Below are positions 6,260 through 32,000 of a stretch of 32,000 bases of DNA, piece by piece (within the stretch, counting starts at the first letter, position 1; each line of letters begins with the position of its first letter). Under the pieces are notes generated by a model. It ran no database searches. It was not told the origin of the DNA and saw only the letters and a list, made by a program, of their open reading frames with translations. The position numbers and the translations under genes are program-made. The stretch is taken from the NCBI RefSeq assembly GCF_018398935.1, contig NZ_CP074694.1, positions 6,300,001 through 6,332,000 on the forward strand. The letters are read 5' to 3'. The DNA comes from Telmatocola sphagniphila (GTDB lineage Bacteria; Planctomycetota; Planctomycetia; Gemmatales; Gemmataceae).

Positions 6260-6501
6260 TTGGAGCGCGGGGAGCCCTTTTTTCGGTTTTCCGTCTCGGG
6301 AAATCGGGAAGTAGGAACCGGAGTAAGCCCCAGAACGGAATAAAATTCCGGGCGAATTAGAACATTCGCCTGTGCACCGAAATGTTATTTGCCAGAAGAC
6401 GGGGCTTTTCAGATTCCCTTCCGGGGTGCGCTGTATTCATTGCCTTCTCGACCTACAATTAAGAAGTCGAATTCATCGAAAATAGATAGGACGCGGAACG
6501 A

Positions 6502-9500
6502 ATGCAGAGCACGTTCGGCGATTTGAGTCAAAAGGTTCCCCCCGCTGGGCTGTTAGGGTATTTGAATTTTTCAGATGGACAGCCTAACGGGAAGTTCCAG
6601 CAGCAATTGAACGAAGCTTATCGGTTCCTGGCCGATCATGGGGATGTTACGCCCTGGCACAGTCTGAAAGTCTGGCTCCAGGATCAGGCCGCCACTCTCG
6701 AAGCTACCGGTTCCTCGGCCTTCAAAGATCTCATTCAAGCCCGGGCGGTCATACGATTTGCGTTCGACCGGGTTCTGGTCCACTACAAAGAATTCCATTC
6801 CGATCTACTGGCCAATCAAAAGGACTGTATTCTATTCTCGCCCTTCTTTCTGGTCCGCGTCTGTGAAGCGGTTTTGAATCAGGGCGGTCCCTGGAACGAG
6901 GATAGCCGGATTATCGCGGGGGCCGTGCAGAAGCTCAACGATTTCGTCGGCCATCGTCCCGTGGCCATTCTGGAAACCCGGGCCCAAACCGACTATTACA
7001 AGCATGAAAAAGTCCGGCCAATCCCTCTCTATATCCGGGGCAGCGGCGTCGGAGCCGGGCCTTATTCGAAAATTGTCGAAAAGGCTCTGGAGATTTTGAA
7101 TTCAACCCCGGAAGAGATCCTTCGGGAAGCCTGTTTCAATATTAACCGGCTCGACGAACTGGCGATGGATCCCCGCCCGTACGACCATACTCATCCTTCG
7201 AACCGCCGGCCCAATTACCTTTTTGGCGAGTGGGATCCCCACTGCATCGACGGCTCGGGCTACTACCGCCGGTTTGTCGTGCGGCCCAATATTCTTTCCG
7301 CACTGGCTCAATGGGCGACCGATCCCGGCGAAGATTCGGAAGGACGTCTTTTCGAATCGGCGGCCGTGCTGGCCGGGACTCTGCTGATGGCCTCCGGCAT
7401 CTCCGGGGATGGTCCCTCCTGCCACGATTCGGATAGCAAACTGGCCATTCTGGTGCCTCAGAATGCTCGCTATCGTGACGCCTTTTATGCGCAACTTCTG
7501 GACAAACAAAACGGCACGTTTGCCAAACGGCTTCAGAAGGAAGCCAAGAAGCTTCGTCAGCCTTTCGGCGGTATCCGCCAGCATCTCAATCACACTCTGG
7601 CTCGGGAACGCGCCGGCCAGTTGCAGGATCGGGAACTGGCACTGCTCTTCGCCGATATGGGCTATCCGCGCATCAGCCGGGATTATGCCGCCCGCATTCC
7701 CACGGCCTCGATCCGCATTCTCAGCGAAATCCGCATCCGTCAGACCGGTCTCGAATTTCAGATTCGCAATGGCCGTACCGCCGGGGCGCACCTGCTGATT
7801 TCCGAAATCGAGGATTTCATTCATCGCGGCATCGACTGCGGCGCCTTGCCCGATCCCTGGAATATTCTCGGTTTCCAAGGCTTATTCCCGCTTTTCCAGG
7901 CCCGTGAAGATTCGGTCTTCGATACCCGCCACGAAGAATTGATCGATGTCGTTCAACGTCAGTTGGCGATCTATTCTTCCGCTTTGGCCGTCACGGCGGC
8001 CAACGGCGATACCAGCCTGCAGTCGATGCTCGGTCGGGGCATCAAGAAATTTGCCGCCTGGTGGGATCAGTTCGCGGCCTACGAAGTGAGTGATCTGCCC
8101 GCGGTTAAGGGAGGCGACCGCTCGGAGGCCGCTTTACACGTCGCTTCCGCACTGGCTCTCTGGGCCGAGGAACGCCGGCAAACCGACAAGTTCGATCTAC
8201 CCAAGAAAACCCAAAATGCCCTCCGATTCTGGCGAAATCAGCGCGAACGGTTCAAATCGGCACCCGCCTACGTTCAGGTCATCGATGCCTTGATTCAGCA
8301 GCAGGACTGGTGGGCGTCCATGGGTCTGATGATGGCCTGGCTGAACGAAGCCGAAACGATGCCGCTAACCGACGGCGAACCCGACTTCTTCGAACTGGGC
8401 CACCGCTGGATGGCGGGTGTCTTGCGCATTAACGACGATGCCGCCCGCCGCTCCTTGATCGAACGCTTCTTCGAGATGCTCGAAGCCAATGCCGGCGATT
8501 ACTGGAATGTGCCTGATCTCGTCGTCTCTTCGACCCCTGTCGATAAAGAGGAGACTTACTCCTCGGCCTACGACGATGTCAGCTATAAAGATTCCACATC
8601 GGATGAAGACGACGGCGGAATTATCGGCGGCGGTGAGGACGATGACATCAGCCTGGAAACCTATCAGGTTCTCTTCGAAAGAAGGCTCGGCTTCCTGAAG
8701 ATGATGGGGGAACTCATCTGCAAAGCCATCCCCTATCACCACTGCAAGGATTGGCTCGACACGGCCTGGTACTGGCGCAAGAAACTCGAAGAATTGCTGG
8801 ATATTCTGCATGAAATTATGATCTCGCCCCCCAGCGGCGGAGTCGAAGACGTCATCGAGTACGATCGCAAAAAGGCGGAGAAAGACCAGCTGATCGAAAT
8901 GGCCATCGATACGACGGTGGCCGTGGGCGCGGGGGTGCAATTGCTGGCCGCCGCCGATCTGCCGGAAGATCCGCTCTCAACCTGTCTGGTGAGCAATGAC
9001 CCCCAGAAAATTCGGGCAGCTCTGCCAGGTCTGTTGGAAAAGCTCTCTGGCGAACCGCTGCTGTTTATCCCGCTGGTCGAAGGCGGCCATCCGAAACAGG
9101 TGCTCCGGGCCAAGCTGAATCTGCACCTGCTGGAAACTCTGCTTGATCGCATCCCCCGTTTTGGCCTGGTACGCGAAACCTTCCACCTGGTGCAGGTGGC
9201 CCGCTCCATGGAGCAGAACAGCCCGCCGGAAGGCCGCAAAATTTCCGAATTCGACCGGCTGTTTCGCATGGCCTTACGGGCAGTTTCGGAAACGCTGCTC
9301 GACGTCGCCGCCGAATCGGAAAAAGAATCGAAACTCTCCAATGTTCGCAATGTCAGTCAGCTACTGCGCAAAGTGGCCGATTCCTTCTTGCAGCTTTGGA
9401 TTTCGCATTCCCAGACGCTACGACTCTCGGCCATCGAGGGAGTGGAAGACTGGGTCGCTTTACGGTCCTTCATCAAGACCTACGGTCGGGAACTCTTCAC

Positions 9501-10299
9501 TCCCGCCTTCATGAACCACGGCAACCTGCGCGGCATCCTTCAACGGGGCGTCGAAAACTGGCTCGAATCGCTGGCCGAGAATGCCACGGAAAATCCGCCG
9601 GAAAAACTGCTGACCGATCTGGAACAAGGGGTGATTTCACGGCGTCGGGCCGGCCAGCATCTGGAGGTGGTTTTGCAGGCCGTGACGGAACATTTCGACG
9701 AGTTCCGCGATTACAACACGACGACGACGCAGTCTGATTACGGGGAAAATCTCCATGTTCTCATGGACTTTTTGCGGCTGAAAGTTGCCTACGATCGTTA
9801 TGCCTGGCGGATGCGGCCCCTGGTCATCGCCCATGAAGTGCTATGCCGTCGCGGCCAGGCCGAGTACGCCGAGCAATGGCGGGCGAATATTGAAGATTTC
9901 ACGCGGAAATTGGCCGATAATCTTCTGGAGGATCTGGCCCGGCTGGAAGCAGAGCACGTCATCCGCCTACGGACCATCCGGGATCGCCTGGAAGAACGCT
10001 TCCTGCTGCCGTTGCGACTGGATGAACTCTCGGCCCTGATAGAGCCCTGTATCGAGGAGGCACGTAACGAGTCGGGCTCCAAAGAGAAGATCAACGAGTT
10101 TCTGGAAAAGCTGCATCCGCTGGCAGAACGGCCGACCGGTGTGGGCCTCGAAGCGCCGGATTGGTTGATTGAGTTGCAGAATGAGGTTCGACGCTCCCGC
10201 GAAAGTGCGGCCATCGAACCGCCGCGACCGGAACGCTTCGCTCTGAACTGGAGCGATCTGCAAAGGCAGTTGTCGGAATGGGATAAGCCGATCGATTAA
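6502..10299 (+). CDS. Large (1265 aa) uncharacterised, apparently all-helical cytoplasmic protein
   Basis: One uninterrupted ORF with an ATG start and backbone-like codon usage. I see no signal peptide, TM segment or catalytic motif. An acidic low-complexity linker (SSAYDDVSYKDSTSDEDDGGIIGGGEDDDISLETY) is encoded near 8563-8655. All track ORFs overlapping it are shorter. Confidence 0.75.
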   Translation: MQSTFGDLSQKVPPAGLLGYLNFSDGQPNGKFQQQLNEAYRFLADHGDVTPWHSLKVWLQDQAATLEATGSSAFKDLIQARAVIRFAFDRVLVHYKEFHSDLLANQKDCILFSPFFLVRVCEAVLNQGGPWNEDSRIIAGAVQKLNDFVGHRPVAILETRAQTDYYKHEKVRPIPLYIRGSGVGAGPYSKIVEKALEILNSTPEEILREACFNINRLDELAMDPRPYDHTHPSNRRPNYLFGEWDPHCIDGSGYYRRFVVRPNILSALAQWATDPGEDSEGRLFESAAVLAGTLLMASGISGDGPSCHDSDSKLAILVPQNARYRDAFYAQLLDKQNGTFAKRLQKEAKKLRQPFGGIRQHLNHTLARERAGQLQDRELALLFADMGYPRISRDYAARIPTASIRILSEIRIRQTGLEFQIRNGRTAGAHLLISEIEDFIHRGIDCGALPDPWNILGFQGLFPLFQAREDSVFDTRHEELIDVVQRQLAIYSSALAVTAANGDTSLQSMLGRGIKKFAAWWDQFAAYEVSDLPAVKGGDRSEAALHVASALALWAEERRQTDKFDLPKKTQNALRFWRNQRERFKSAPAYVQVIDALIQQQDWWASMGLMMAWLNEAETMPLTDGEPDFFELGHRWMAGVLRINDDAARRSLIERFFEMLEANAGDYWNVPDLVVSSTPVDKEETYSSAYDDVSYKDSTSDEDDGGIIGGGEDDDISLETYQVLFERRLGFLKMMGELICKAIPYHHCKDWLDTAWYWRKKLEELLDILHEIMISPPSGGVEDVIEYDRKKAEKDQLIEMAIDTTVAVGAGVQLLAAADLPEDPLSTCLVSNDPQKIRAALPGLLEKLSGEPLLFIPLVEGGHPKQVLRAKLNLHLLETLLDRIPRFGLVRETFHLVQVARSMEQNSPPEGRKISEFDRLFRMALRAVSETLLDVAAESEKESKLSNVRNVSQLLRKVADSFLQLWISHSQTLRLSAIEGVEDWVALRSFIKTYGRELFTPAFMNHGNLRGILQRGVENWLESLAENATENPPEKLLTDLEQGVISRRRAGQHLEVVLQAVTEHFDEFRDYNTTTTQSDYGENLHVLMDFLRLKVAYDRYAWRMRPLVIAHEVLCRRGQAEYAEQWRANIEDFTRKLADNLLEDLARLEAEHVIRLRTIRDRLEERFLLPLRLDELSALIEPCIEEARNESGSKEKINEFLEKLHPLAERPTGVGLEAPDWLIELQNEVRRSRESAAIEPPRPERFALNWSDLQRQLSEWDKPID

Positions 10300-10604
10300 T
10301 CGAATTTCCTTTTATTGGGAAACGCCAATATGCTTGAAAATTACTCCCCCTACCAACAGAAGGTTATCAAGAATTACTACGCGAACATCGATAAGGTGAG
10401 TCTGCAACGGCTCTCCGAATTGGTGACGGAACTCTATCTGGCGGAAGGTAAGAAGAAGGACAAGCTCTGGCAAACCGCGGCCACGACCATGAAGAAGCTG
10501 GAGGTCCCGCAAAGCCGGATCGATCACATCACGTCAAAGGCCGACGTGACTCTGTTGGCCGGGCTGGTGAAGGAGCTGATGGGGAAGTGAGGAGGGGGAT
10601 TTTA
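10245..10604 (+). repeat. Direct repeat, left copy: last 18 codons of the 1265-aa gene, the 30-nt spacer and the 86-aa gene
   Basis: Aligns without gaps through the stop codon (10590 / 13815) to 13470..13834; homology decays (with indels) in the last ~15-20 nt. The 30-nt spacer tcgaatttccttttattgggaaacgccaat is identical in both copies. Confidence 0.9.
10330..10590 (+). CDS. Small (86 aa) conserved hypothetical protein, copy 1, partner of the 1265-aa gene
   Basis: The ATG at 10330 lies 30 nt after the stop of the 1265-aa gene; the track ORF starts at an upstream TTG (10315). Translation is MLENYSPYQQKVIKNYYANIDKVSLQRLSELVTELYLAEGKKKDKLWQTAATTMKKLEVPQSRIDHITSKADVTLLAGLVKELMGK. Coding status is supported by the synonymous-only divergence from copy 2. 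Confidence 0.75.
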   Translation: MLENYSPYQQKVIKNYYANIDKVSLQRLSELVTELYLAEGKKKDKLWQTAATTMKKLEVPQSRIDHITSKADVTLLAGLVKELMGK

Positions 10605-10718
10605 AGATCGTGGATATCTCAATTTATTTTTGGAACAAACGCCTCTTTGATCAACCACTCCAGGCTAATTGCGTTTAATATTTGTAGAGTTTCAAAAATG
10701 CCCGGATGAAAAACCACT

Positions 10719-10958
10719 TCATCGATTGCCGACGCTGGCGGCCAAGCGCTTCTTTGCCATATTCTCGTCACATCTGGTATTGTTCACTGTGCTCAAAGTA
10801 CGGCAATAAATCGTAGCTATATAGTTTGGTCCATGATTCACTCGCGTATGGCTCTCGCTATCGCTAATCGCCGCATACATGAGCCTGACCTCGAGATTCA
10901 TGTTCACGGCGTTGGATGCAGTAATCCGATGAGCGGAATAATTGCCGAAATGAGTCAC
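10719..10958 (-). CDS. Hypothetical 79-aa ORF (weak call)
   Basis: GTG start preceded by a strong CTGGAGGACACC Shine-Dalgarno context (GGAGG about 5 nt upstream). Its start lies 94 nt from the left end of palindromic element A. No family recognised, and the composition is N/S/T/A-rich. Confidence 0.3.
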   Translation of the reverse strand: MTHFGNYSAHRITASNAVNMNLEVRLMYAAISDSESHTRVNHGPNYIATIYCRTLSTVNNTRCDENMAKKRLAASVGNR

Positions 10959-11052
10959 GGTGTCCTCCAGGGATGTTGGTAGCGTGCATCAAGTGGAAAC
11001 AGCAAGAAGGGGGGTTAAAAGTGTCGCAGATAATGCAGAGCAATTGTTTCTT

Positions 11053-11121
11053 AGAGGCTCTAACAAAACCCCTTTTTGTAGCAGTATTCCATGAACAAAC
11101 TGAGGTTTTATTAGAGGTTCT
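11053..11121 (+). repeat. 69-bp palindromic (MITE-like / REP-like) element, copy A
   Basis: Sequence agaggctctaacaaaacccc-tttttgtagcagtattccatgaacaaactg-aggttttattagaggttct. The 20-nt arms pair at 16/20 Watson-Crick positions plus one G-T pair. The asymmetric centre sets the orientation, which matches copy C. Confidence 0.85.
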
Positions 11122-11389
11122 TATTCATTTGCCTGGCGTAAGCTCAAAGTTGAAAACCAAGGATGAGCTTGGAATTAGAGCAGGAGCAGTTGCGGTAAGT
11201 TAAATGCCTTAAGATAAGAAAAAAAATGAAAATATTTTTAAAATTGGCTTGACCGATGAATAAGGCAAAGTTAATTTGCATGCATGCTGAAGCCTTTCCC
11301 AGACAATTATCAGACTAAATAAGATTGCGGTTAAATCACATACAAAGAAGCAACAGTAGAAATATATGCCTTGATTTAAAAGATTGACC

Positions 11390-11554
11390 ATGAATAATCG
11401 CGATGAATCGTGCATGTCAGAATTTAATATGCTGAAGGCCGAATTGTGTTTTATTGCCACCACATACGAAAAAGCGCATGAAATCTATTCTTTGAAATCG
11501 AGTGCCGATCAAGGTTCGGACTTCGCCGGATTGCTTAGTTACGGCAGCAAATAA
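11390..11554 (+). CDS. Possible small ORF (54 aa) leading the AT-rich operon (very weak call)
   Basis: ATG at 11390, TAA at 11552-11554. Translation is MNNRDESCMSEFNMLKAELCFIATTYEKAHEIYSLKSSADQGSDFAGLLSYGSK. It ends 24 nt before the ATG of the next gene. It is below the ORF-track size cut-off, has no clear RBS and no recognised family. Confidence 0.2.
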   Translation: MNNRDESCMSEFNMLKAELCFIATTYEKAHEIYSLKSSADQGSDFAGLLSYGSK

Positions 11555-11578
11555 TAATCGTTGGCTGGAGTATTAGAT

Positions 11579-11989
11579 ATGAACTCGATTGCGAACTTGA
11601 TGGTGGTGCTTGGGGGGATAGGTCTCTTTTTTGCATTCGGGCCAAATAGTTTACTAAATGGTAAAACCGATGCGACAAGCCAGAGTGACTCTAGAGAGCT
11701 GGTGGTCTCAAAGATAGAATGCAAGAAGATTTCTGACCATTATGAAGCGGAAGTTTGTTTCGAGAACAAAACGCAGAATTCAGTCTCCATCATCGAAATT
11801 ATCCCTACCTGCAGCTGCGCGAGCGGGAGAATTGAAGATTCCATGGTTGATCCTGTAAGGGAAGGTAAGATACGACTCGAATTTAAGCCCGGAGCGAGCG
11901 ATACTCAACAGATCATGATTCTCTACGAGGGTGTATTCGGAGGTCGATACCCTATTGTCGTCAATCTTAAATTGGGTTCCAAATCTTAG
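11579..11989 (+). CDS. Membrane-anchored DUF1573-like (single Ig-like beta-sandwich) protein
   Basis: The ATG at 11579 gives MNSIANLMVVLGGIGLFFAFG (an N-terminal TM anchor), followed by a pattern that fits DUF1573: CFENKTQNSVSIIEIIPTCSCASGRIEDSMVDPVREGKIRLEFKP. The family SCGC motif appears here as TCSC. Codon usage is strongly AT-rich. Confidence 0.55.
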   Translation: MNSIANLMVVLGGIGLFFAFGPNSLLNGKTDATSQSDSRELVVSKIECKKISDHYEAEVCFENKTQNSVSIIEIIPTCSCASGRIEDSMVDPVREGKIRLEFKPGASDTQQIMILYEGVFGGRYPIVVNLKLGSKS

Positions 11990-12108
11990 CTCGTTGAACG
12001 GGAACGATCATAAAGCAATCTTTACTATATATAACTAATCCCATATTGAATTTACTTCGAATAGAATATTCGACTTGTGGGTGTAAATTTACAACTGAAA
12101 GTGTTTAT

Positions 12109-13203
12109 ATGAAAATATTTATTTGCTTAGCAGTTGCGTTATTGCTCGATTACAATTGCTGCCGGGCGGAAAGTAATAATGCCGAGGAGATTGCCAAACT
12201 TCAAAAAGCGGGACTCGAAGCTTTGGCCTACTTTAAATCCATCACTTATAGTGGCAGTGACTCCAGCTCGGAAATTCTGTCAATGCTCAAAAAAGACGCC
12301 GAACTAAAAAATATAGCATTTACCGATTGCAGTACCATGGACTACGATAGGTATGAAGTTTATAATAACGACAGTCAAAAATACAATCATAAATATAGTT
12401 TAAAACAGATTGTGGGGAAAGATTGTTTGTTTGAAAATAGCAGTCTGATATCTAAGCCGCAAGAAGTGTGGCAAACCAGCTACTATTTTGGAGGCAAATC
12501 TTTGCAATTTACGGGAAAGCGAATTGTGCATCGCATAACAAATACAGGGGATTGCGGCGCGATAAGATATTTGGATTTGCGATTTATTAGTTCCCTTAGT
12601 CAAACTTTAACTCGCGAATTTAAAGGCGATTCCACATATGCGGAATATCTTGAAATGATTGAAGATAGAATAAAGAATTCATTAAAATGTAAAATATATA
12701 AAACAGAGAAAGATGTATTTGCAAAAATAGAATCAAATAAAAAATTGGCTGACGTTTCTTTGTACCTTCGATTTGAAAAAACTAAATCCGAATTTCTTCT
12801 AGCCGAAGTTGCAATTGCGACACCTAGTACTCTTTTTTACAAAAAATCATCATATGATGTTGCATTTAATGAGTTTCTGCCTCGTGAGGTGTCCTGTTCG
12901 CAATATGATAACTCAATACTAATTGAACACAATTCGATCACAGTAAAAAATCTTGTTGTAGGTAACTGCAAATGCGAGCCGAAAGATATATCTTTCGATG
13001 GGTTAGGTGAAATTGCGTACGGTGATTTGGTCTATCCGGTATACAGTAAAAATTTCATCCAATCAATATTTTATGGCGAAAAAATTGTAAAAATTGCGAC
13101 AGAGCGAAATCCCAAATTATACCTCATTGTTACCTCATGTGCCTTTCTAGCACTGGGATTATTAATACATTTGAGAAAAAGAATACTTAAAATGAGTAAA
13201 TAG
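12109..13203 (+). CDS. Hypothetical Cys-rich extracytoplasmic protein with a signal peptide and a C-terminal TM anchor
   Basis: The ATG at 12109 gives MKIFICLAVALLLDYNCCRAES (signal-like). The C-terminus LYLIVTSCAFLALGLLIHLRKRILKMSK is a TM helix plus a basic tail. Cysteines are scattered through the protein. The track ORF begins at an upstream TTG (12046). The gene is very AT-rich and its stop lies 8 nt before element B. Confidence 0.6.
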   Translation: MKIFICLAVALLLDYNCCRAESNNAEEIAKLQKAGLEALAYFKSITYSGSDSSSEILSMLKKDAELKNIAFTDCSTMDYDRYEVYNNDSQKYNHKYSLKQIVGKDCLFENSSLISKPQEVWQTSYYFGGKSLQFTGKRIVHRITNTGDCGAIRYLDLRFISSLSQTLTREFKGDSTYAEYLEMIEDRIKNSLKCKIYKTEKDVFAKIESNKKLADVSLYLRFEKTKSEFLLAEVAIATPSTLFYKKSSYDVAFNEFLPREVSCSQYDNSILIEHNSITVKNLVVGNCKCEPKDISFDGLGEIAYGDLVYPVYSKNFIQSIFYGEKIVKIATERNPKLYLIVTSCAFLALGLLIHLRKRILKMSK

Positions 13204-13211
13204 AAATATTA

Positions 13212-13280
13212 AGAGGCTCTGACAAAACCCCATTTCGTCCATTGAATACTGCTACAAAGAGAGGTTTTGTTAGGGCTTCT
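13212..13280 (-). repeat. 69-bp palindromic (MITE-like / REP-like) element, copy B, inverted relative to A and C
   Basis: The reverse complement of B aligns ungapped to A at 56/69 positions by hand count. It shares an exact 13-mer (gtattcaatggac) with C. In direct orientation the centres do not align. Confidence 0.85.
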
Positions 13281-13310
13281 AAATATCAAAAAAATGGGCT
13301 TCTCAATGTT

Positions 13311-13469
13311 GTAACCGCCCACACCTCGTCTTGAGATTATCTGGAATTGCTCTTGCGCTGGGGAATTAATTATCTTATCTCGGGGATGGAGTCTATCAGC
13401 GAAGAGTGGCTTATTCGCCAAACGCCGGAAGTTCGGGCTGTGCTGCGGATTCTTTTGAACCGCATCGCC
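13311..13469 (+). mobile_element. Truncated 5' end of an IS66-family-like insertion sequence (terminal GTAA inverted repeat plus the first ~31 codons of the transposase)
   Basis: G+C rises abruptly at GTAACCGCCCACACC (13311); IS66-family ends typically begin GTAA. An ATG at 13386 encodes MESISEEWLIRQTPEVRAVLRILLNRIAELE.., resembling the N-terminal leucine-zipper region (DUF6444-type, ..PEVQ....L..RIAELEA.L) of IS66-like transposases as I remember them. The frame then runs out of frame into host-like sequence and stops at 13511. Confidence 0.4.
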
Positions 13470-13470
13470 G

Positions 13471-13524
13471 AACTGGAGCGATCTGCAAAAGCAGCTGTCG
13501 GAGTACGATAAGCCGATCGAATAA
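13471..13524 (+). pseudogene. Orphan 3'-terminal remnant (17 codons plus stop) homologous to the C-terminus of the 1265-aa gene
   Basis: Reads NWSDLQKQLSEYDKPIE-stop versus NWSDLQRQLSEWDKPID-stop at 10246-10299. An in-frame TGA lies just upstream (13456-13458), so there is no long ORF. Confidence 0.6.
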
Positions 13525-13554
13525 TCGAATTTCCTTTTATTGGGAAACGCCAAT

Positions 13555-13815
13555 ATGCTCGAAAATTACTCCCCCTACCAGCAGAAGGTTATCAAGAATT
13601 ACTACGCGAACATCGATAAGGTGAGTCTGCAACGGCTCTCCGAATTGGTGACGGAGCTCTATCTGGCGGAAGGTAAGAAGAAAGACAAGCTCTGGCAAAC
13701 GGCGGCCACGACGATGAAGAAGCTGGAGGTCCCGCAGAGCCGGATTGATCACATCACCTCGAAAGCGGATGTGACGCTATTGGCCGGGGTGGTGAAGGAG
13801 CTGATGGGGAAGTAG
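13555..13815 (+). CDS. Small (86 aa) conserved hypothetical protein, copy 2
   Basis: Identical in length to copy 1 with one amino-acid difference (L to V near the C-terminus). There are 15 synonymous third-position differences, and the stop is TAG instead of TGA. The upstream 30 nt are identical to copy 1. Confidence 0.7.
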   Translation: MLENYSPYQQKVIKNYYANIDKVSLQRLSELVTELYLAEGKKKDKLWQTAATTMKKLEVPQSRIDHITSKADVTLLAGVVKELMGK

Positions 13816-13865
13816 GGGGAGGAGGTGTTTTTTGCAGGCATATATATTCTTCGAATAAAAATCAA

Positions 13866-15638
13866 TTACACTATTGTTTTCTCTTTGGCATGTAAAGATG
13901 CTAAAAGAAGGCCAATATGAAATACGCAATCTGTGAGGTATGGATTTATTTCGTTCGGCAAAATATCGCCATGAAATAGTCTGTTTCGAACATTAAGACC
14001 TAATTGATCAGTAAGAATATATCGCATATAAAATATTTCATCTTCGCTTTTGAAGATATTTAACAAAATAGGATCTCTCAAAAGGTCATCAAGTATTCGG
14101 AGATGAAATGCTCCACTTCTCGATTTTTTTATAATATACCCGTCAGAAAATTTTATCAAAAGACGAATTGCAGATTCGAGCTGAGGAAGAAACAGATGTA
14201 ATGCTGAAATCCAATCGTTCTCTAGGTATGATTTGATTGCCCTTTCAGTTAGTAACTTTTTATTTTCGCTGAATAAATGATTTGAGTGTATATACTCTGA
14301 AAAGTTTTCTTTATTTATAAGATTTCGAGATATACAAGCTTCAATAATTTGTCTATAGAGAAAATATTTGACAGGTTGGGTTATGCTCCAATATGACTTT
14401 AAAGCGCCGCCCTCGTCATTTTCGGCACTTCCGATGCTCCCTTGCTCGCGGCCATCTCTCGCTATTAATTTTTTTGTGACAAGATTCTGTAAGGGAAATT
14501 GCGCGACTAATCCTTTGATGTCTTTTCGATCCTGCTCAAAATTGGGTAAGCCTTGTATAGCGAGGTTTGTAAACACATCGCCAGGTGCTTCGATGAAGTT
14601 TTTTATGATACATTCAATTTCGCCGTTAGGAATGTGGATCGAGCTAGTCAGAGGGTGTAGTTCCATAGACATTTTTTTTGCACACTCAGAATACATTTTT
14701 ATTGCTTCGGCTGCCAAATCGTTTAAATTATACTGTTGTAAGGTCTTATGAATCTCCTGCATCCAAGCTGTAGTTATGATGCCTTTTATATCATGATTTT
14801 TTATTTTTTCAATATAAGCATCGGCGTATACCTTCAAAACGCGTGTGACATCTGACGAAGTTGCTGCTTTATTGTAAAATTCTGCCAGCCGAGTTGCGGC
14901 GAATTTTACACCTTCGGGCTCACTAGAATATTCTTGAAAAAGATTCCTGTATTTCGCAAGATTATTTTCGAGATTATTTATTATTTCAATAATTGAATCA
15001 ATTGAAATTTTACTTTTACAAGAACTTTCCAAAAGTAGATCATATGGATTCTTCCAAACATAGTAGGTCTTCTCAGTGTCTTTTGATTTGTAAAATTCGA
15101 TAATTGTAGAGCATAATTCTTGTAGAAGGTCATCTTCTTTGGTCAGGATTGCGAGTTGAATGGATCGTTCGAATCGAGCATAAGTTGTGTGCAAATATAC
15201 GTCCAGATCCGATTTGGCGATATCTATCGCTGCTCGAATGGTTGTCTTTGTGACTCTATTATCTTTCATTTTAAGTCTGGGCATCATGTCCCATGCTATA
15301 TCCGAATATCTGTATTTGAATATCGGATGAGTAACATCTTCACTCCGTTTAATCCAATACGAAATCCATTTTTCATTTAAATCAATGATTGATGGGAACT
15401 GACTGTTTTCATACTCCGAAAAGGGTGTATAATAATGCTCTGATCCATATCTTGACAATTGCTTTCCAGTAATGGGCCGAACCCTGAAAGCGAAAATTTC
15501 TGCTTCGAGTTCAAAATCGGATTGAGTAGGATTTAGGTTGGGAATTAATTTGATTAATTCTTCTGCCAACTCGTCTTCGGTAAAATTTTTCTTAAATGTT
15601 TCAAACTTATGAATTATTTCATCAATATGAGCTTTCAT
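13866..15638 (-). CDS. 590-aa protein with a C-terminal HEPN-like R-x4-H domain (resembles the DUF4209 family)
   Basis: Uninterrupted AT-rich ORF with an ATG start. The C-terminal region LFLPQLESAIRLL...YILTDQLGLNVRNRLFHGDILP carries R-N-R-L-F-H, encoded at 13971-13988 on the minus strand. This fits the HEPN Rx4-6H signature and my memory of the DUF4209 motif G.NLRN..AHG. The N-terminal ~450 aa are helical with no recognised motif. Confidence 0.7.
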   Translation of the reverse strand: MKAHIDEIIHKFETFKKNFTEDELAEELIKLIPNLNPTQSDFELEAEIFAFRVRPITGKQLSRYGSEHYYTPFSEYENSQFPSIIDLNEKWISYWIKRSEDVTHPIFKYRYSDIAWDMMPRLKMKDNRVTKTTIRAAIDIAKSDLDVYLHTTYARFERSIQLAILTKEDDLLQELCSTIIEFYKSKDTEKTYYVWKNPYDLLLESSCKSKISIDSIIEIINNLENNLAKYRNLFQEYSSEPEGVKFAATRLAEFYNKAATSSDVTRVLKVYADAYIEKIKNHDIKGIITTAWMQEIHKTLQQYNLNDLAAEAIKMYSECAKKMSMELHPLTSSIHIPNGEIECIIKNFIEAPGDVFTNLAIQGLPNFEQDRKDIKGLVAQFPLQNLVTKKLIARDGREQGSIGSAENDEGGALKSYWSITQPVKYFLYRQIIEACISRNLINKENFSEYIHSNHLFSENKKLLTERAIKSYLENDWISALHLFLPQLESAIRLLIKFSDGYIIKKSRSGAFHLRILDDLLRDPILLNIFKSEDEIFYMRYILTDQLGLNVRNRLFHGDILPNEINPYLTDCVFHIGLLLASLHAKEKTIV

Positions 15639-15668
15639 TGCACTTGCACCAAATAAATCTTCTGAAAT

Positions 15669-15735
15669 AGAGGTATTAACAAAACCCCATTTTTGCGGTA
15701 TTCAATGGACAAATTGAGGTATTGTCAGAGTTTCT
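15669..15735 (+). repeat. 67-bp palindromic (MITE-like / REP-like) element, copy C (most degenerate)
   Basis: Sequence agaggtattaacaaaaccccatttttgcggtattcaatggacaaattgaggtattgtcagagtttct, in the same orientation as A. It lies 30 nt upstream of the ATG of the 590-aa gene and 36 nt beyond the stop of the esterase gene. It marks the composition shift back to the backbone. Confidence 0.8.
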
Positions 15736-15771
15736 TAGGGGCATTATTGTTCTTTCTGAGAAAAATGTCCC

Positions 15772-16662
15772 TCACTTCCCCTTCTCCCTCAGCTTCAACC
15801 CCGAGTGCTTCGCCACGAACTCTAGCAGTGCCTGCGTGGCGGGGTCCGATTCGCTCAACATCAGCCAGGCCATGATCGTAATATGATTCCGTTCCGGGAT
15901 CATTTGAACCGACACATCGACTTTGTGCTTCTTCAATTCCTCCGCAAAGTTCTTCGACATCACATCACAGGTTGGGAAGTCCTTGTCGGCATACAAAATC
16001 AAAAACGGCGGCTCCTTACCGGTTACCTGCTGGATCGGCGAAGCACTTTCGGCCGCTTCCTTCCCCTTCCCGATGATTGGCACAAACCGGTTCTCGTGGA
16101 AGTTGTAAATGCCGCTGATCGGCATCACTCCTTTGATATCTTTCAGGGAAAGCTTCTCCGCCTTCAAATAGCTTTCGTTTGTTCCCAATAGGGCCGCGAG
16201 ATGGCCGCCCGCCGATTGCCCGGTCACAAATATCTGATCGTTTTTTCCGTCATATTTGCCGATATTCTTATGCGTCCAGGCAAACGCTTTCGCCACATCT
16301 TCGATATGCCCCGGATGCTGGACCTGCGGCGTCAACCGATAGCTGAGCACCACCGTTCCGATCCCGTTCTTGGCGAATACATGGCCCACCGGGCCGTACA
16401 TCTTGCGGTCGCCGGTGGTCCAACCGCCGCCATGGATGAAGAACAGAACGGGGAAGTCCTTCTGGCCCTTGGGAATAAACAGATCGAGCTTGTGCTTGTT
16501 ATCTTCGCCCTCTTTGCCTTCCACGTAAGGAATATCCTTGTGAACCTCGACCTCGTACGGGCCCGCGATTTTGATCGGCTTTGTATCTTCGGCCTGTGCA
16601 CTCATTGAGAAACATCCGAGGGTGACAATCAAAGTTAGCAGGGTGTTCCAGTAATTCTTCAT
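15772..16662 (-). CDS. Secreted alpha/beta-hydrolase (esterase/lipase, HGGG-type)
   Basis: 296 aa with a signal peptide (MKNYWNTLLTLIVTLGCFSMSAQA). It has an oxyanion-hole motif (FIHGGGW) and a nucleophile elbow (GQSAGG). Confidence 0.8.
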   Translation of the reverse strand: MKNYWNTLLTLIVTLGCFSMSAQAEDTKPIKIAGPYEVEVHKDIPYVEGKEGEDNKHKLDLFIPKGQKDFPVLFFIHGGGWTTGDRKMYGPVGHVFAKNGIGTVVLSYRLTPQVQHPGHIEDVAKAFAWTHKNIGKYDGKNDQIFVTGQSAGGHLAALLGTNESYLKAEKLSLKDIKGVMPISGIYNFHENRFVPIIGKGKEAAESASPIQQVTGKEPPFLILYADKDFPTCDVMSKNFAEELKKHKVDVSVQMIPERNHITIMAWLMLSESDPATQALLEFVAKHSGLKLREKGK

Positions 16663-16843
16663 GGGTAAATCTCAAATTCTCAAAACGATTTCGCTCCAGC
16701 TATTTTACAGCAATTGCTGGCAGTTGCAGTTGTGCGGACACGGATAAACCGCCGGGTGGAAGAATTTTTCAAAATGATCTGGCATAACTGTAAAAGTGAA
16801 CATATAGTGTACGCATGTTTACTTGTGCGTCGGGAGGCCAACC

Positions 16844-18058
<1,215 letters not shown>

Positions 18059-29240: not shown

Positions 29241-29964
29241 GGATGCCTCAGGATCGAAAATACGTTTAAAATTCAGAAAATTCCGTTCACTGCGATGTTA
29301 AAGATTTGAGTAGAGCGCGTCAACGAAAATGCTTCGATAATGCGTGGAGCCCTGCTTGGAACAACCGCGATAGCGATATTCTCGTTTCGGTTTACACTCT
29401 ATTTGGCGAAATAGCGGGCTGTTCTGGGGGCGATATTCCGCTAGTCACTTCTTTCAGGGAAGACATTTCATCGAAAAGTGCCTCGAGAATACTCTAGTAG
29501 AAGAAGCAAGCCCCCACAGTGATCGCGAAGAAACAAAGAAATTGGGTACTGGCTCTGCCGATGATCTCTCGACGGAGACAATCAACGATTTTCTCCATGC
29601 TTTTCTGGAGGTTTCTGATTTTTGGAGATGTACAGGCTCTCAGGTTTGGAGAAAAAAGGTGATGCGGCCGTGCAGAAGGGTAAATTTTCGGTCCGGAAAA
29701 GGGAAATCGACGTTTTTCTTGGAAAAACGCAGAAAAGACCCTTCAAAATTGTCAGTTTAATACCGGGAAGGTCATCAAATTGCTGTTTTCCACTATATGA
29801 AAATTGATGATCTGATGACCTCTCTAGAGAAAACCCGTACACCGAACGGTTTTTTCCCTATCGAATTTTGTGAGGATTATGTGCTTTTCCATTTCTCATC
29901 TTGCCGACCTTCCTCTGGCGCCACATAATTTTCAAATACACTATATGGGCAAAAGTTGTATGAT

Positions 29965-29991
29965 CGTTCGACTAAAAGCAGGTGTCGAACG
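29965..29991 (+). promoter_or_regulatory. Stem-loop in the rpsO 5' leader (candidate S15 autoregulatory element)
   Basis: CGTTCGAC-taaaagcaggt-GTCGAACG forms a perfect 8-bp stem with an 11-nt loop. It ends 27 nt upstream of the rpsO ATG. Confidence 0.25.
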
Positions 29992-30018
29992 CGGAAGTAT
30001 TGAAGGACAAAAGCGAAA

Positions 30019-30285
30019 ATGATCACGAAGGAACGCAAAAGCGGAATTATTGGTGATTTCAAACGAGCCGAGACAGACACGGGTTCACCCGAAGTGCAAG
30101 TGGCTCTTTTGACCGCTCGAATCAATGAATTGACCGAGCACATGCGAGCTCACACGAAGGATCACGCGAGCCGACGTGGGTTGCTCAAGATGGTCAGCAA
30201 GCGAGCCGACCTGTTGAAGTATTTGCAGAATACGGACCGGAATCGGTATCTGGCCGTGATTGGTAAACTGGGACTGCGAAAATAG
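30019..30285 (+). CDS. rpsO: 30S ribosomal protein S15
   Basis: 88 aa: [69 protein letters not shown], the canonical S15 sequence pattern. Confidence 0.95.
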
Positions 30286-30294
30286 TCTTCGCTT

Positions 30295-30325
30295 GCCCGT
30301 CGGTCGAAACCGGCGGGCATTTTTC
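30295..30325 (+). terminator. Rho-independent terminator/attenuator hairpin between rpsO and pnp
   Basis: GCCCGTCGG-tcgaaa-CCGGCGGGC forms a 9-bp stem including one G-U pair, followed by ATTTTTC. It starts 9 nt after the rpsO stop. Confidence 0.65.
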
Positions 30326-30476
30326 ATAAACGGGGGAGAGGTCCTTTTCCCTCGACTCTTCCGAGTGCTGCTTTGGCGATCTCTCGGGTTCTCGACCTGA
30401 ATATCCAACCTGTCGGGTTCCTACCGCGACAATCGCCGGGAAATACCTGCTTAACATCTAAAAGAGGATTGCACCT

Positions 30477-32000
30477 GTGACGGTGACACGTGTTGAATGC
30501 GCTTTAGGCGCTGGTACTTTGATTCTGGAAACGGGAAAATTAGCAAAACAAGCTCACGGATCGGTGGTCGTTCGATACGGCGACACGATGACTCTGGTAG
30601 CCGCGGTGGCCGGCAAGTTGGATCCCACTCGGGATTTCTTTCCCCTGACCGTCGATTATCGAGAAAAACCCCAGGCGGCGGGTAAATTCCCCGGTGGCTA
30701 CATCAAGCGGGAAGGCCGACCTACCACCAAGGAAATTCTGACTGCCCGACTTATCGACCGTCCTATCCGCCCCCTGTTCCCCGCCGATTATTTCAACGAA
30801 GTTCAGGTGATGTGTCAGGTCATCTCCGCCGATCGTGAAAACGATCCGGATATCCTGTCCATGATCGGTGCTTCGGCCGCGCTTTACGCTTCACCGATCC
30901 CGTTCCAGAAGCCGACCGGTGCTGTGCGCGTCGGTCGGGTGAACGGCGAATTCGTGGTGATGCCGAGCCATCACCAGATGGAAGAAAGCGATCTCGATCT
31001 GATCGTCTCCGGCACCAAGGAAGCCGTGGCGATGATCGAAGGTTTCTCCCGGGAACTCTCGGAAGAAGTCATGGGCGATGCCGTGATGTTCGGTCACAAG
31101 TACATCGTTCAAATCTGCGAATTGATCGAAGAACTCCGCGAAAAAGCCGGGATGGGCACCAAACCGGCCGTCGCGGCTTCTCCGGCCAATCCGCTCATCA
31201 AAGAGATGTACGACAAGTTCGCCAAGGAACTGCGGGCTCGCAAACTGACGGTGGCCAAACTGGAACGCTACGAAAAAGTGGCGGCCCTCAAAGACGAGAT
31301 GAAAAAGCATTATTTCCCGGAAGGAGCCACGACTCCTCCCGAATATTCGCCCGGCCAGTTCGCGCAGGCCTGGGCCCTCCTGGAAGAGAAAGTCTTCCGC
31401 GATATCGTGCTCGACGGCGGTCGTATTGATGGCCGGGGTTTCAAGCAGATTCGGGCGCTGCATTGCGAAGTCAGCCTGCTGCCGCGCACGCACGGCTCGG
31501 CCTTGTTTACTCGCGGAGAAACGCAAGCTCTCGTGACCGCAACCCTCGGCACCGCCGCGGATGAGCAGCGGATTGAAGGGCTGGAAGGCGAGTATGTCAA
31601 GAAGTTCATGCTCGACTACAACTTCCCGCCGTTCTCGGTCGGAGAATGCAAGCCGTTACGCGGCCCCGGTCGACGGGAAATCGGCCACGGGATGCTGGCC
31701 GAGCGTTCGCTGAAGGCCGTGATGCCGCTGCCAGGCAAGTTCCCTTATACCGTTCGACTGGTATCCGATATTCTCGAATCGAACGGCTCTTCCAGCATGG
31801 CTTCGGTCTGCGGTGGAACGCTCGCGCTGATGGATGCTGGAGTGCCGATTCAAAATCCGGTGGCAGGCATTTCCATCGGGCTAGTGAAGGAAGCCGATAA
31901 GTTCATCCTCTTTACCGATATCCAGGGCGATGAAGACCACTATGGCGATATGGACTTCAAGGTCGCCGGGACGCAGCGTGGCATCACCGGGATTCAGCTC
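30477..32000 (+). CDS. pnp: Polynucleotide phosphorylase; the N-terminal 508 codons are in the window and the 3' end runs off the right edge
   Basis: Absent from the ORF track because there is no stop in the window. The GTG at 30477 follows AAGAGG (30462-30467), and an in-frame TAA lies at 30459. Translation is VTVTRVECALGAGTLILETGKLAKQAHGSVVVRYGDT...FPLTVDYREKPQAAGKFPGGYIKREGRPTTKEIL...GDMDFKVAGTQRGITGIQL, a classic PNPase. Length to the window end is exactly 508 codons. Confidence 0.9.
   Translation, partial: MTVTRVECALGAGTLILETGKLAKQAHGSVVVRYGDTMTLVAAVAGKLDPTRDFFPLTVDYREKPQAAGKFPGGYIKREGRPTTKEILTARLIDRPIRPLFPADYFNEVQVMCQVISADRENDPDILSMIGASAALYASPIPFQKPTGAVRVGRVNGEFVVMPSHHQMEESDLDLIVSGTKEAVAMIEGFSRELSEEVMGDAVMFGHKYIVQICELIEELREKAGMGTKPAVAASPANPLIKEMYDKFAKELRARKLTVAKLERYEKVAALKDEMKKHYFPEGATTPPEYSPGQFAQAWALLEEKVFRDIVLDGGRIDGRGFKQIRALHCEVSLLPRTHGSALFTRGETQALVTATLGTAADEQRIEGLEGEYVKKFMLDYNFPPFSVGECKPLRGPGRREIGHGMLAERSLKAVMPLPGKFPYTVRLVSDILESNGSSSMASVCGGTLALMDAGVPIQNPVAGISIGLVKEADKFILFTDIQGDEDHYGDMDFKVAGTQRGITGIQL

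Follow-up and report, generated by a model that had tools for sequence, protein, structure and literature searches.

A probable variable spot behind a conserved small gene of Telmatocola sphagniphila, with a divergent candidate DUF4209 HEPN defence gene and MITE-like palindromes

Introduction

Hotspots in which defence genes and other variable genes are anchored to a core gene are described in enterobacterial and Vibrio genomes. The Planctomycetes are poorly explored both for mobile DNA and for anti-phage defence. Here we analyse an A+T-rich region of Telmatocola sphagniphila (Gemmataceae, Planctomycetota), located at positions 10591-15771 of a 32,000-nt stretch of contig NZ_CP074694.1 (6,300,001 to 6,332,000, forward strand). 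This whole stretch is called the window, and all coordinates refer to it. The region lies directly behind a gene pair of 1265 and 86 amino acids (aa) and ends before an esterase gene; it contains a second copy of the 86-aa gene, three short palindromic elements and, as its main cargo, a gene for a 590-aa protein.

The family closest to this cargo is PDC-S39 of the PADLOC collection, itself a candidate defence family only, for which no published phenotype or biochemistry was found. The domain at the C-terminus, DUF4209 (the C6orf70/ERMARD family), is assigned by Anantharaman et al. (2013) to the HEPN RNase superfamily, with a prediction that it is active and a mention of restriction-modification contexts (PMC3710099). 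Like PDC-S39, the 590-aa protein has the usual length of about 590 aa, a near full-length match to the profile, a C-terminal DUF4209 with an RNxxxH motif and a solo gene within accessory DNA. It differs from the family in that none of 1.84 billion cluster representatives is more than 31% identical to it, and in its setting, a gene of 35% G+C in a planctomycete genome of 55% G+C. A second likeness is to Abi_2 (AbiD/AbiF-type), also a single-gene predicted RNase of the HEPN type found in an A+T-rich insert. In the related locus L017, an Abi_2 gene takes the equivalent position and orientation behind an 87-aa gene. The 590-aa protein, in contrast, has no Abi_2 match, is twice as long and possesses another N-terminal region.

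The surroundings can likewise be set beside known arrangements. As in the defence hotspots, a core gene is followed by varying and partly defence-type cargo (DUF4209, Abi_2, NHL, HisKA, methyltransferase); the difference is that only two of about eight contexts hold a defence-type gene, with neither integrase nor satellite machinery. An integrase-mediated island shares the deviating composition and codon usage, whereas no integrase and no tRNA or tmRNA site is found here.

Results

Composition and extent of the region

The region has a G+C fraction of 0.386, against 0.548 in the rest of the window. In profiles of 500-nt and 200-nt windows the value drops to 0.28-0.45 from about 11000 to 15750, compared with 0.52-0.60 on both flanks. 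Measured by tetranucleotides, each 1-kb window of the region lies at a distance of z=6-13 from the backbone, and the adjacent flanks stay at |z|<1.6. The G+C of third codon positions (GC3) is 0.33 in the 364-aa gene, 0.32 in the 590-aa gene and 0.50 in the gene of a DUF1573 protein, versus 0.61-0.71 in 13 backbone genes and 0.77-0.79 in both copies of the 86-aa gene. An original prediction, made on this DNA without database searches, had proposed such a shift from hand counts of single lines, with A/T-ending codons in the open reading frames (ORFs) inside and G/C-ending codons in the backbone. Windowed G+C and tetranucleotide deviation (z up to 13) confirm the shift, the GC3 values agree with the codon preference, and the hand counts are exact (18.3% at 12661-12720, 33.3% at 14041-14100, 58.3% at 9001-9060).

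On the right, the composition changes sharply at about 15740-15771. On the left it changes in steps, with 46% G+C at 10601-11050 and the true drop at 11051; both edges were placed correctly by the prediction. The single island that it had drawn between them does not stand. The A+T-rich DNA falls into at least two blocks, block 1 at 11051-13282 and block 2 at 13826-15771, split by backbone-type DNA that carries a second, selectively kept copy of a conserved host gene. The segments of block 1 are of mixed G+C (46%, 37%, 45%, 35%, 48%). Block 2 is essentially one gene, that of the 590-aa protein, with 30-50 nt on each side.

The account that we favour as probable is that a conserved small gene is followed, at 10591-15771, by a variable spot into which foreign A+T-rich DNA came in at least two events and which has no mobility machinery of its own. 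The accessory, acquired nature of the A+T-rich DNA is most likely, and on this point the original prediction is supported by the deviating composition and codons, by a 364-aa protein lacking relatives, by a 590-aa protein whose nearest relative is 31% identical, and by the related locus L046, from which the region is missing.

Scans with Pfam, NCBIfam, PHROGs and PADLOC detect no integrase, recombinase or transposase in the ORFs of 10300-16700, and no integrase or transposase is among the genes called within 10 kb to the left and right of the region. By ARAGORN the 32 kb are free of tRNA and tmRNA genes, and the region has no DNA similarity to any of 72,556 plasmids. The domain scans and ARAGORN thereby uphold the claim that no intact integrase, transposase or tRNA is present, and its corollary, decayed or mobilised in trans, is a fair description in the absence of any intact mobility gene. 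The insertion sequence (IS) fragment of the same prediction was not reproduced. Six-frame ORFs of at least 25 aa in 10591-11560 and 13285-13530 gave no match in the four profile collections, nor by tblastx and blastn against the fetched loci and the rest of the window. The locus tags KIH39_25240 to KIH39_25260 are consecutive (steps of 5), which leaves no tag free between the two 86-aa genes for a pseudogene in the annotation.

The NCBI annotation has four genes in the region (46, 136, 364 and 590 aa), and the forecast of four to six A+T-rich ORFs was roughly right. For the 590-aa protein, the 364-aa protein and the two 86-aa proteins, T. sphagniphila entries at NCBI give 100% identity. The features of the region and its flanks are as follows.

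6502-10299: 1265-aa gene, left of the region.
10245-10600, plus strand: repeat R1, comprising the last ~55 nt of the 1265-aa gene, a spacer, 86-aa copy 1 and ~10 nt past its stop.
10330-10590, plus strand: 86-aa gene copy 1, KIH39_25240.
10601-11050, no strand: 450-nt segment without a credible gene, 46% G+C.
11051-11123, plus strand: palindromic element A, 67-nt core 11054-11120, flanks TTA/TTA.
11124-11413, no strand: A+T-rich non-coding stretch of ~290 nt upstream of the block-1 genes (11124-11578 has 37% G+C).
11414-11554, plus strand: 46-aa hypothetical ORF, KIH39_25245, sole member of its cluster by exact look-up.
11579-11989, plus strand: 136-aa DUF1573 protein, QVL32103.1, G+C 0.45, GC3 0.50.
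12109-13203, plus strand: 364-aa protein, KIH39_25255, G+C 0.35, GC3 0.33.
13210-13282, minus strand: palindromic element B, 67-nt core 13213-13279, flanks TAA/TAA, inverted relative to A and C.
13283-13469, no strand: segment of ~190 nt linking element B to R2 (13290-13455 has 48% G+C).
13470-13825, plus strand: repeat R2, comprising a dead 1265-aa-type 3' tail, a spacer and 86-aa copy 2.
13555-13815, plus strand: 86-aa gene copy 2, KIH39_25260.
13866-15638, minus strand: 590-aa DUF7380+DUF4209 (HEPN) protein, G+C 0.35, GC3 0.32, convergent with 86-aa copy 2.
15667-15737, plus strand: palindromic element C, degraded, 65-nt core 15670-15734, flanks ATA/TTA.
15772-16662, minus strand: 296-aa BD-FAE/alpha-beta hydrolase esterase, right backbone flank, GC3 0.71.

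The repeat and the 86-aa gene

The 86-aa gene and its surroundings form a 356-nt direct repeat, R1 at 10245-10600 and R2 at 13470-13825, in agreement with the backbone-like duplicated segment of about 360 bp that had been predicted. The identity is 94% over 300 nt and is given as 92-94% over the full 356 nt. The homology ends abruptly, at ~10245/13470 on one side and at 10598/13823 on the other. Independent short-read assemblies of the strain (Logan SRR14506984 and SRR14506983) break inside the repeat on both sides, and the repeat is therefore not an assembly artefact. A protein look-up did not recover a block-1 contig in these two assemblies. Since the assemblies break in the repeat and this contig is not recovered, short-read metagenome-assembled genomes (MAGs) would probably miss the region.

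The two 86-aa copies differ at 16 codons, with 15 synonymous changes and one non-synonymous change (L79V). The synonymous divergence (dS) is 0.32 and the ratio of non-synonymous to synonymous divergence (dN/dS) 0.015, so both copies have long been kept functional under strong purifying selection and neither is a fresh duplication scar. The 1265-aa-type tail in R2 is dead: it contains an in-frame stop, and 21 codons are left. This tail shares a K and the terminal E with the outgroup L046, both of which R1 has changed; the R1 tail in turn retains a W that is altered in R2. The mixture of ancestral states indicates that both repeats derive from an older common sequence. Their differences are unevenly spread, with 3 in the 149 nt of 10282-10430 (13507-13655 in R2) and 26 in the 207 nt outside (Fisher p=2.6e-4), the repeat DNA flanking the tract being about 13% diverged. 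We infer that tract 10282-10430 results from a later gene conversion between the copies. R1 and R2 would descend from an old segmental duplication, or from the import of a related copy, partly homogenised by conversion afterwards, and they may serve as homology arms through which block 1 is gained or lost.

The family of the 86-aa protein is very conserved: it counts 1348 proteins at 65-85% identity, 16 residues do not vary across an alignment of 53 sequences, and no Pfam family covers it; nothing closer than 85% identity is present in the protein collection searched. The structure model is a five-helix bundle (pLDDT, predicted local distance difference test, 95). Foldseek against the PDB returns only matches with E>1, hence no significant structural neighbour, and a weak resemblance to the ribosomal protein bS20 was discounted. 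An apparent tandem of 86-aa genes in the relative L018 was also set aside, the second 'gene' being an overlapping spurious call where tblastn gives one copy.

The arrangement of the repeats bears directly on the main rival account, a rather unlikely one, in which block 1 (10601-13469) and one repeat copy are the decayed remains of one integrative element that has lost its integrase; R1 and R2 would be the attachment repeats on its left and right. Such an element would have entered by recombination at the 86-aa gene, through a Campbell-type single crossover or through site-specific insertion at the 3' end of the 1265-aa/86-aa genes. The direct repeat brackets exactly block 1 and begins in the 3' end of a gene, a feature of elements that rebuild the gene they enter. 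A donor copy of related descent would fit the 6-8% divergence, and ancestral residues lost in R1 survive in the R2 tail. Set against this, no integrase, excisionase or replication gene is found in the scanned ORFs, and att sites are usually much shorter and less diverged than these repeats. The dS and dN/dS values speak for long upkeep of two working genes, with no recent scar, and the composition of block 1 is mixed. The old repeat encloses block 1 but not block 2, which needs a separate event in any case.

The site in other genomes

Locus L046 encodes a relative of the 1265-aa protein that is 79% identical over the C-terminal 209 aa. Behind this gene stand one 86-aa gene, with neither a duplicate nor A+T-rich DNA, and then high-G+C genes of a sensor kinase, a response regulator and a sigma factor. 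In species-representative genomes, homologues of the 1265-aa protein occur at 11 loci (37-58% identity), nearly all in Planctomycetota MAGs, and at these loci neither the 86-aa gene nor the esterase is adjacent. The 1265-aa/86-aa pair is accordingly confined to the Telmatocola/L046 lineage. The 1265-aa protein itself has no Pfam, NCBIfam, PADLOC or PHROG family. A recent move of the 86-aa gene next to the 1265-aa gene was considered and rejected, as L046 shares the adjacency; any such move is older than the region.

Elsewhere the 86-aa gene keeps other company. In four more distant relatives an ABC transporter is followed by dtd, the 86-aa gene and a methyltransferase gene. Among closer relatives, L015 has the order OEP, 86-aa gene, NHL, and L017 the order deacetylase, 87-aa gene, Abi_2. 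In L017 (metagenome contig Ga0654469_0064121), the Abi_2 gene at 1273-2178 has 43% G+C between flanks of 54-57%, lying 13 nt behind the 87-aa gene in convergent orientation. In L019, a Type ISP restriction-modification pair (N6_Mtase, Eco57I, Type_ISP_C) occupies 6369-9836, 4-7 kb downstream of the 86-aa gene, and so adds a further defence-type locus to this neighbourhood.

These neighbourhoods raise the idea that A+T-rich abortive-infection genes of the HEPN type settle repeatedly, as on a landing pad, in the DNA 3' of the conserved Gemmataceae 86-aa gene, with the second 86-aa copy supplying homology arms for an integrase-free exchange. We regard it as improbable. The two cases, DUF4209 here and Abi_2 in L017, are both convergent and lie 13-50 nt from the stop of the small gene. 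Two HEPN cases in about eight contexts hint at a hotspot; the sample is too small for this to be proof.

A separate observation concerns the far end of the window, where 778 nt without genes (29241-30018) lie between an ABC-transporter binding-protein gene and rpsO. The G+C is lowered, to 0.43 in the 500-nt window 29501-30000 and to 0.475 in the 1-kb window 29501-30500, where the tetranucleotide z is 3.2. The stretch contains no repeats and no palindromic element of the kind described below, and has no similarity to the A+T-rich region. In the four relatives mentioned above, dtd and the 86-aa gene stand at this position, beside the binding-protein gene, which indicates that an ancestral neighbourhood has been broken at this point.

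The palindromic elements

Elements A, B and C are 65-67 nt long, have terminal inverted repeats of 19-22 nt and possess no coding capacity. Their ends consist of GAGGCTCTAACAAAACC(CC) and its reverse complement, enclosing a centre of 25-30 nt that is similar in all three. The family can be written as the pattern GAGGCTCTRACAAAACC...GGTTTTGTYAGAGCCTC. The window contains no copies beyond the three that the original prediction had noticed, and chance alone would give 0. All lie in intergenic A+T-rich DNA inside the region, in mixed orientation (A+, B-, C+). Element A folds into a hairpin of -11.6 kcal/mol (z=-3.2). Element B, which starts 6 nt past the stop of the 364-aa gene, reaches -12.2 kcal/mol (z=-3.1). 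Element C, between the esterase stop and the start of the 590-aa gene, no longer folds (z=+0.7).

Six soil metagenome contigs of 51-68% G+C carry one copy each. These copies have the same 19-22-nt ends and a length of 63-67 nt, their centres are unrelated, and they are placed in short intergenic gaps. Their flanks are TAA/TAA in three cases, TTA/TAA in one and TCA/TAG in one. On viral contigs, matches to the palindrome ends are single chance matches in coding sequence with no partner repeat.

We read the palindromes as putative non-autonomous elements resembling miniature inverted-repeat transposable elements (MITEs) with TWA as target, a preference that would explain their position in A+T-rich DNA. 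A transposase from another part of the genome may move them in trans, and they would have arrived after the cargo. A 3-bp TNA/TWA duplication presumably points to the IS5 superfamily; a literature search for a citable statement on the target duplication of IS1031 gave none. Bacterial MITEs of the IS5 superfamily (compare the eukaryotic Tourist/PIF-Harbinger elements) are likewise small, non-coding, intergenic and bounded by terminal inverted repeats, and matching 3-nt flanks are seen in 5 of 8 copies here. The difference lies in the central ~29 nt, which changes completely between organisms. The Correia elements of Neisseria are a functional analogue.

Conserved ends and length around a free loop are unusual for a MITE family and are also seen in REPIN-like repeats. 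REPIN-type repeats, in which conserved arms likewise enclose a variable loop, may be an alternative for the palindromes. The palindromes do not mark the limits of the region, as had been proposed for element C: two of the three have matching 3-nt flanks, their orientation is mixed, and unrelated metagenome contigs carry single copies with these ends.

A further interpretation, very unlikely in our judgement, takes the palindromes for integron attC sites, the region for a cluster of attC sites lacking an integron integrase (CALIN) and the 364-aa and 590-aa genes for cassette cargo. The core sites of attC are RYYYAAC and GTTRRRY. The element consensus CTCTAAC...GTTAGAG resembles them, being one mismatch away from each. 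The length of 65-67 nt, the conserved ends with variable centres, the position of element B 6 nt past an ORF stop, and an A+T-rich cargo that lacks relatives or is of toxin type would also suit attC sites. The details disagree. The arms pair ungapped, without bulges or an unpaired central spacer, showing either symmetric 1x1 mismatches or an unbroken 18-bp stem, and the palindrome reaches 4-7 nt past the putative core sites. The individual copies depart from the consensus (ATTAGAG in A, CTCTGAC in B, GTCAGAG in C), so that GTT is replaced by ATT in A and by GTC in C. The orientation is not uniform, element C lies 5' rather than 3' of the 590-aa gene, the metagenome copies are single on contigs of up to 4.8 kb, and the 32 kb contain no integron integrase.

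The 590-aa gene

Pfam places DUF4209 at residues 487-575 of the 590-aa protein with 53.0 bits (cut-off 22.3). An N-terminal match to DUF7380 is weak, at 19.9 bits and below its cut-off of 27. The PADLOC profile PDLC05011 of PDC-S39 aligns residues 43-563 with profile positions 50-561 of 595 (E=1.4e-27), and a second profile of the family, PDLC05012, also matches (E=2.5e-26). A HMMER search of 1.84 billion cluster representatives yields 2158 relatives at E<=1e-3, 423 of them at E<=1e-30; the closest is 31% identical, and most of the listed matches are about 570-630 aa long. A word-indexed search with the same protein returns only the protein itself.

In an alignment of 40 sequences at 22-28% identity, E488, R551, N552, H556 and G557 are invariant. 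R551-N552-x3-H556 corresponds to the Rx4-6H motif of HEPN proteins in the form RNxxxH. DUF4209 is found in 40 of the 40 aligned relatives and DUF7380 in 22 of 40 at E<=1e-3. The structure model is all-helical with a pLDDT of 89, and the protein has no membrane segment and is read as cytoplasmic. Foldseek against the PDB gives only helical-repeat noise and no PDB sequence relative exists, and for this reason the proposed HEPN fold rests on sequence. The relatives are solo genes, one of them beside a HicB-type antitoxin gene and another beside a tyrosine recombinase on an Agrobacterium plasmid; relatives also occur on five viral contigs.

The protein is thus a candidate single-gene defence RNase of the DUF4209 HEPN / PDC-S39 type. 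It may act as a stand-alone abortive-infection or stress-triggered RNase, in which the large helical N-terminal two-thirds would sense a phage cue or restrain the enzyme, and the C-terminal HEPN domain would cut RNA. This mechanism is drawn by analogy with other HEPN abortive-infection proteins, as a search for experimental work on the family found none. The promoter of the gene may lie in or next to element C; alternatively, transcription may read through from the esterase gene.

The position of the gene beside 86-aa copy 2 permits one more interpretation, which we consider extremely unlikely, namely that the two genes are a functional pair and the small protein a regulator or antitoxin of the RNase, which would account for the retention of the duplicate beside it. 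The second 86-aa copy is indeed under strong purifying selection directly beside a HEPN gene, and in L017 the 87-aa homologue is likewise followed, 13 nt away, by a convergent HEPN-type Abi_2 gene. The 86-aa family, however, is conserved across 1348 proteins and has a housekeeping context without a HEPN gene in four relatives. The convergent orientation does not make an operon, the relatives of the 590-aa protein stand alone without such a partner, and the composition shows separate origins of the two genes.

Genes and segments of block 1

The 136-aa protein matches Pfam DUF1573 (PF07610) with 27.2 bits against a cut-off of 26.1, over residues 51-116 of a 142-aa reading, and the NCBI name is also DUF1573 protein. 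Its N-terminal hydrophobic segment, residues 1-26, is a membrane anchor. The 364-aa protein has an N-terminus that looks like a signal peptide by eye and, in the hydrophobic segment 335-357, a C-terminal membrane anchor. It matches only itself among 5.8 billion proteins and no family in Pfam, NCBIfam, PHROGs or PADLOC; the chance of an ORF staying open over such a length is about 2e-13. Block 1 encodes three small envelope-type proteins (46, 136 and 364 aa) and gives no hint of a system. The original prediction had named the region the most likely place in the window for an undescribed system. This expectation fails, since the main cargo falls in a described candidate family, DUF4209 HEPN / PDC-S39, and the remainder is the small envelope set.

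The ORFs of the two gene-less segments, 10601-11050 and 13283-13469, have no Pfam, NCBIfam or PHROG match, and neither segment is similar to the fetched loci or the rest of the window by tblastx and blastn, including, for 13283-13469, the 1265-aa gene. By exact look-up, the ORFs of 10601-11050 and 11124-11413 are absent from the protein collection. An Rfam scan of 9500-17000 at E<=1 returns only a chance match to a eukaryotic long non-coding RNA.

That the region is ancestral, with a low G+C caused by local constraints (envelope genes, low expression, regulatory DNA), can hardly be credited: the DUF1573 domain is common in Planctomycetes, this gene has the intermediate GC3 of 0.50 and no close relative allows a strict presence/absence comparison, but the gap amounts to 16 points of G+C and 30-40 points of GC3, tetranucleotide z is as high as 13, the 364-aa protein matches only itself, the 590-aa family is scattered over plasmids, prophages and many phyla, and L046 is without the region.

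Discussion

The reading that we prefer, a variable spot behind the 86-aa gene filled with foreign DNA on at least two occasions, has several points weighing against it. The right flank of L046, the most useful comparator, is not the esterase, and hence L046 comes nearest to an empty site but is no true one. The DUF1573 gene, with its intermediate composition, may be older or native. For the palindromes, the flanks match in only 5 of 8 copies and are all T-rich and TWA-like, so that they may be a conserved motif, and no parent IS with matching ends is seen within the window. For the 590-aa protein, the literature on DUF7380, PDC-S39 and DUF4209 function yielded no phenotype, RNase assay or transcript.

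Every component of the locus is of a known kind. The locus is a divergent member in a little-studied phylum, and no new kind of system. Its value is partly that of annotation, in setting out the limits of the acquired DNA, which ORFs are real and the nature of the palindromes. It offers examples of a divergent single-gene insert of the DUF4209 HEPN / PDC-S39 type, of a palindrome family shared with soil metagenomes, and of a conserved small gene with varying surroundings. The 590-aa gene is a candidate for experimental work on DUF4209 proteins. If the landing-pad idea were true, the site behind the 86-aa gene would be a planctomycete-specific, core-gene-anchored defence hotspot with a very divergent candidate HEPN effector.

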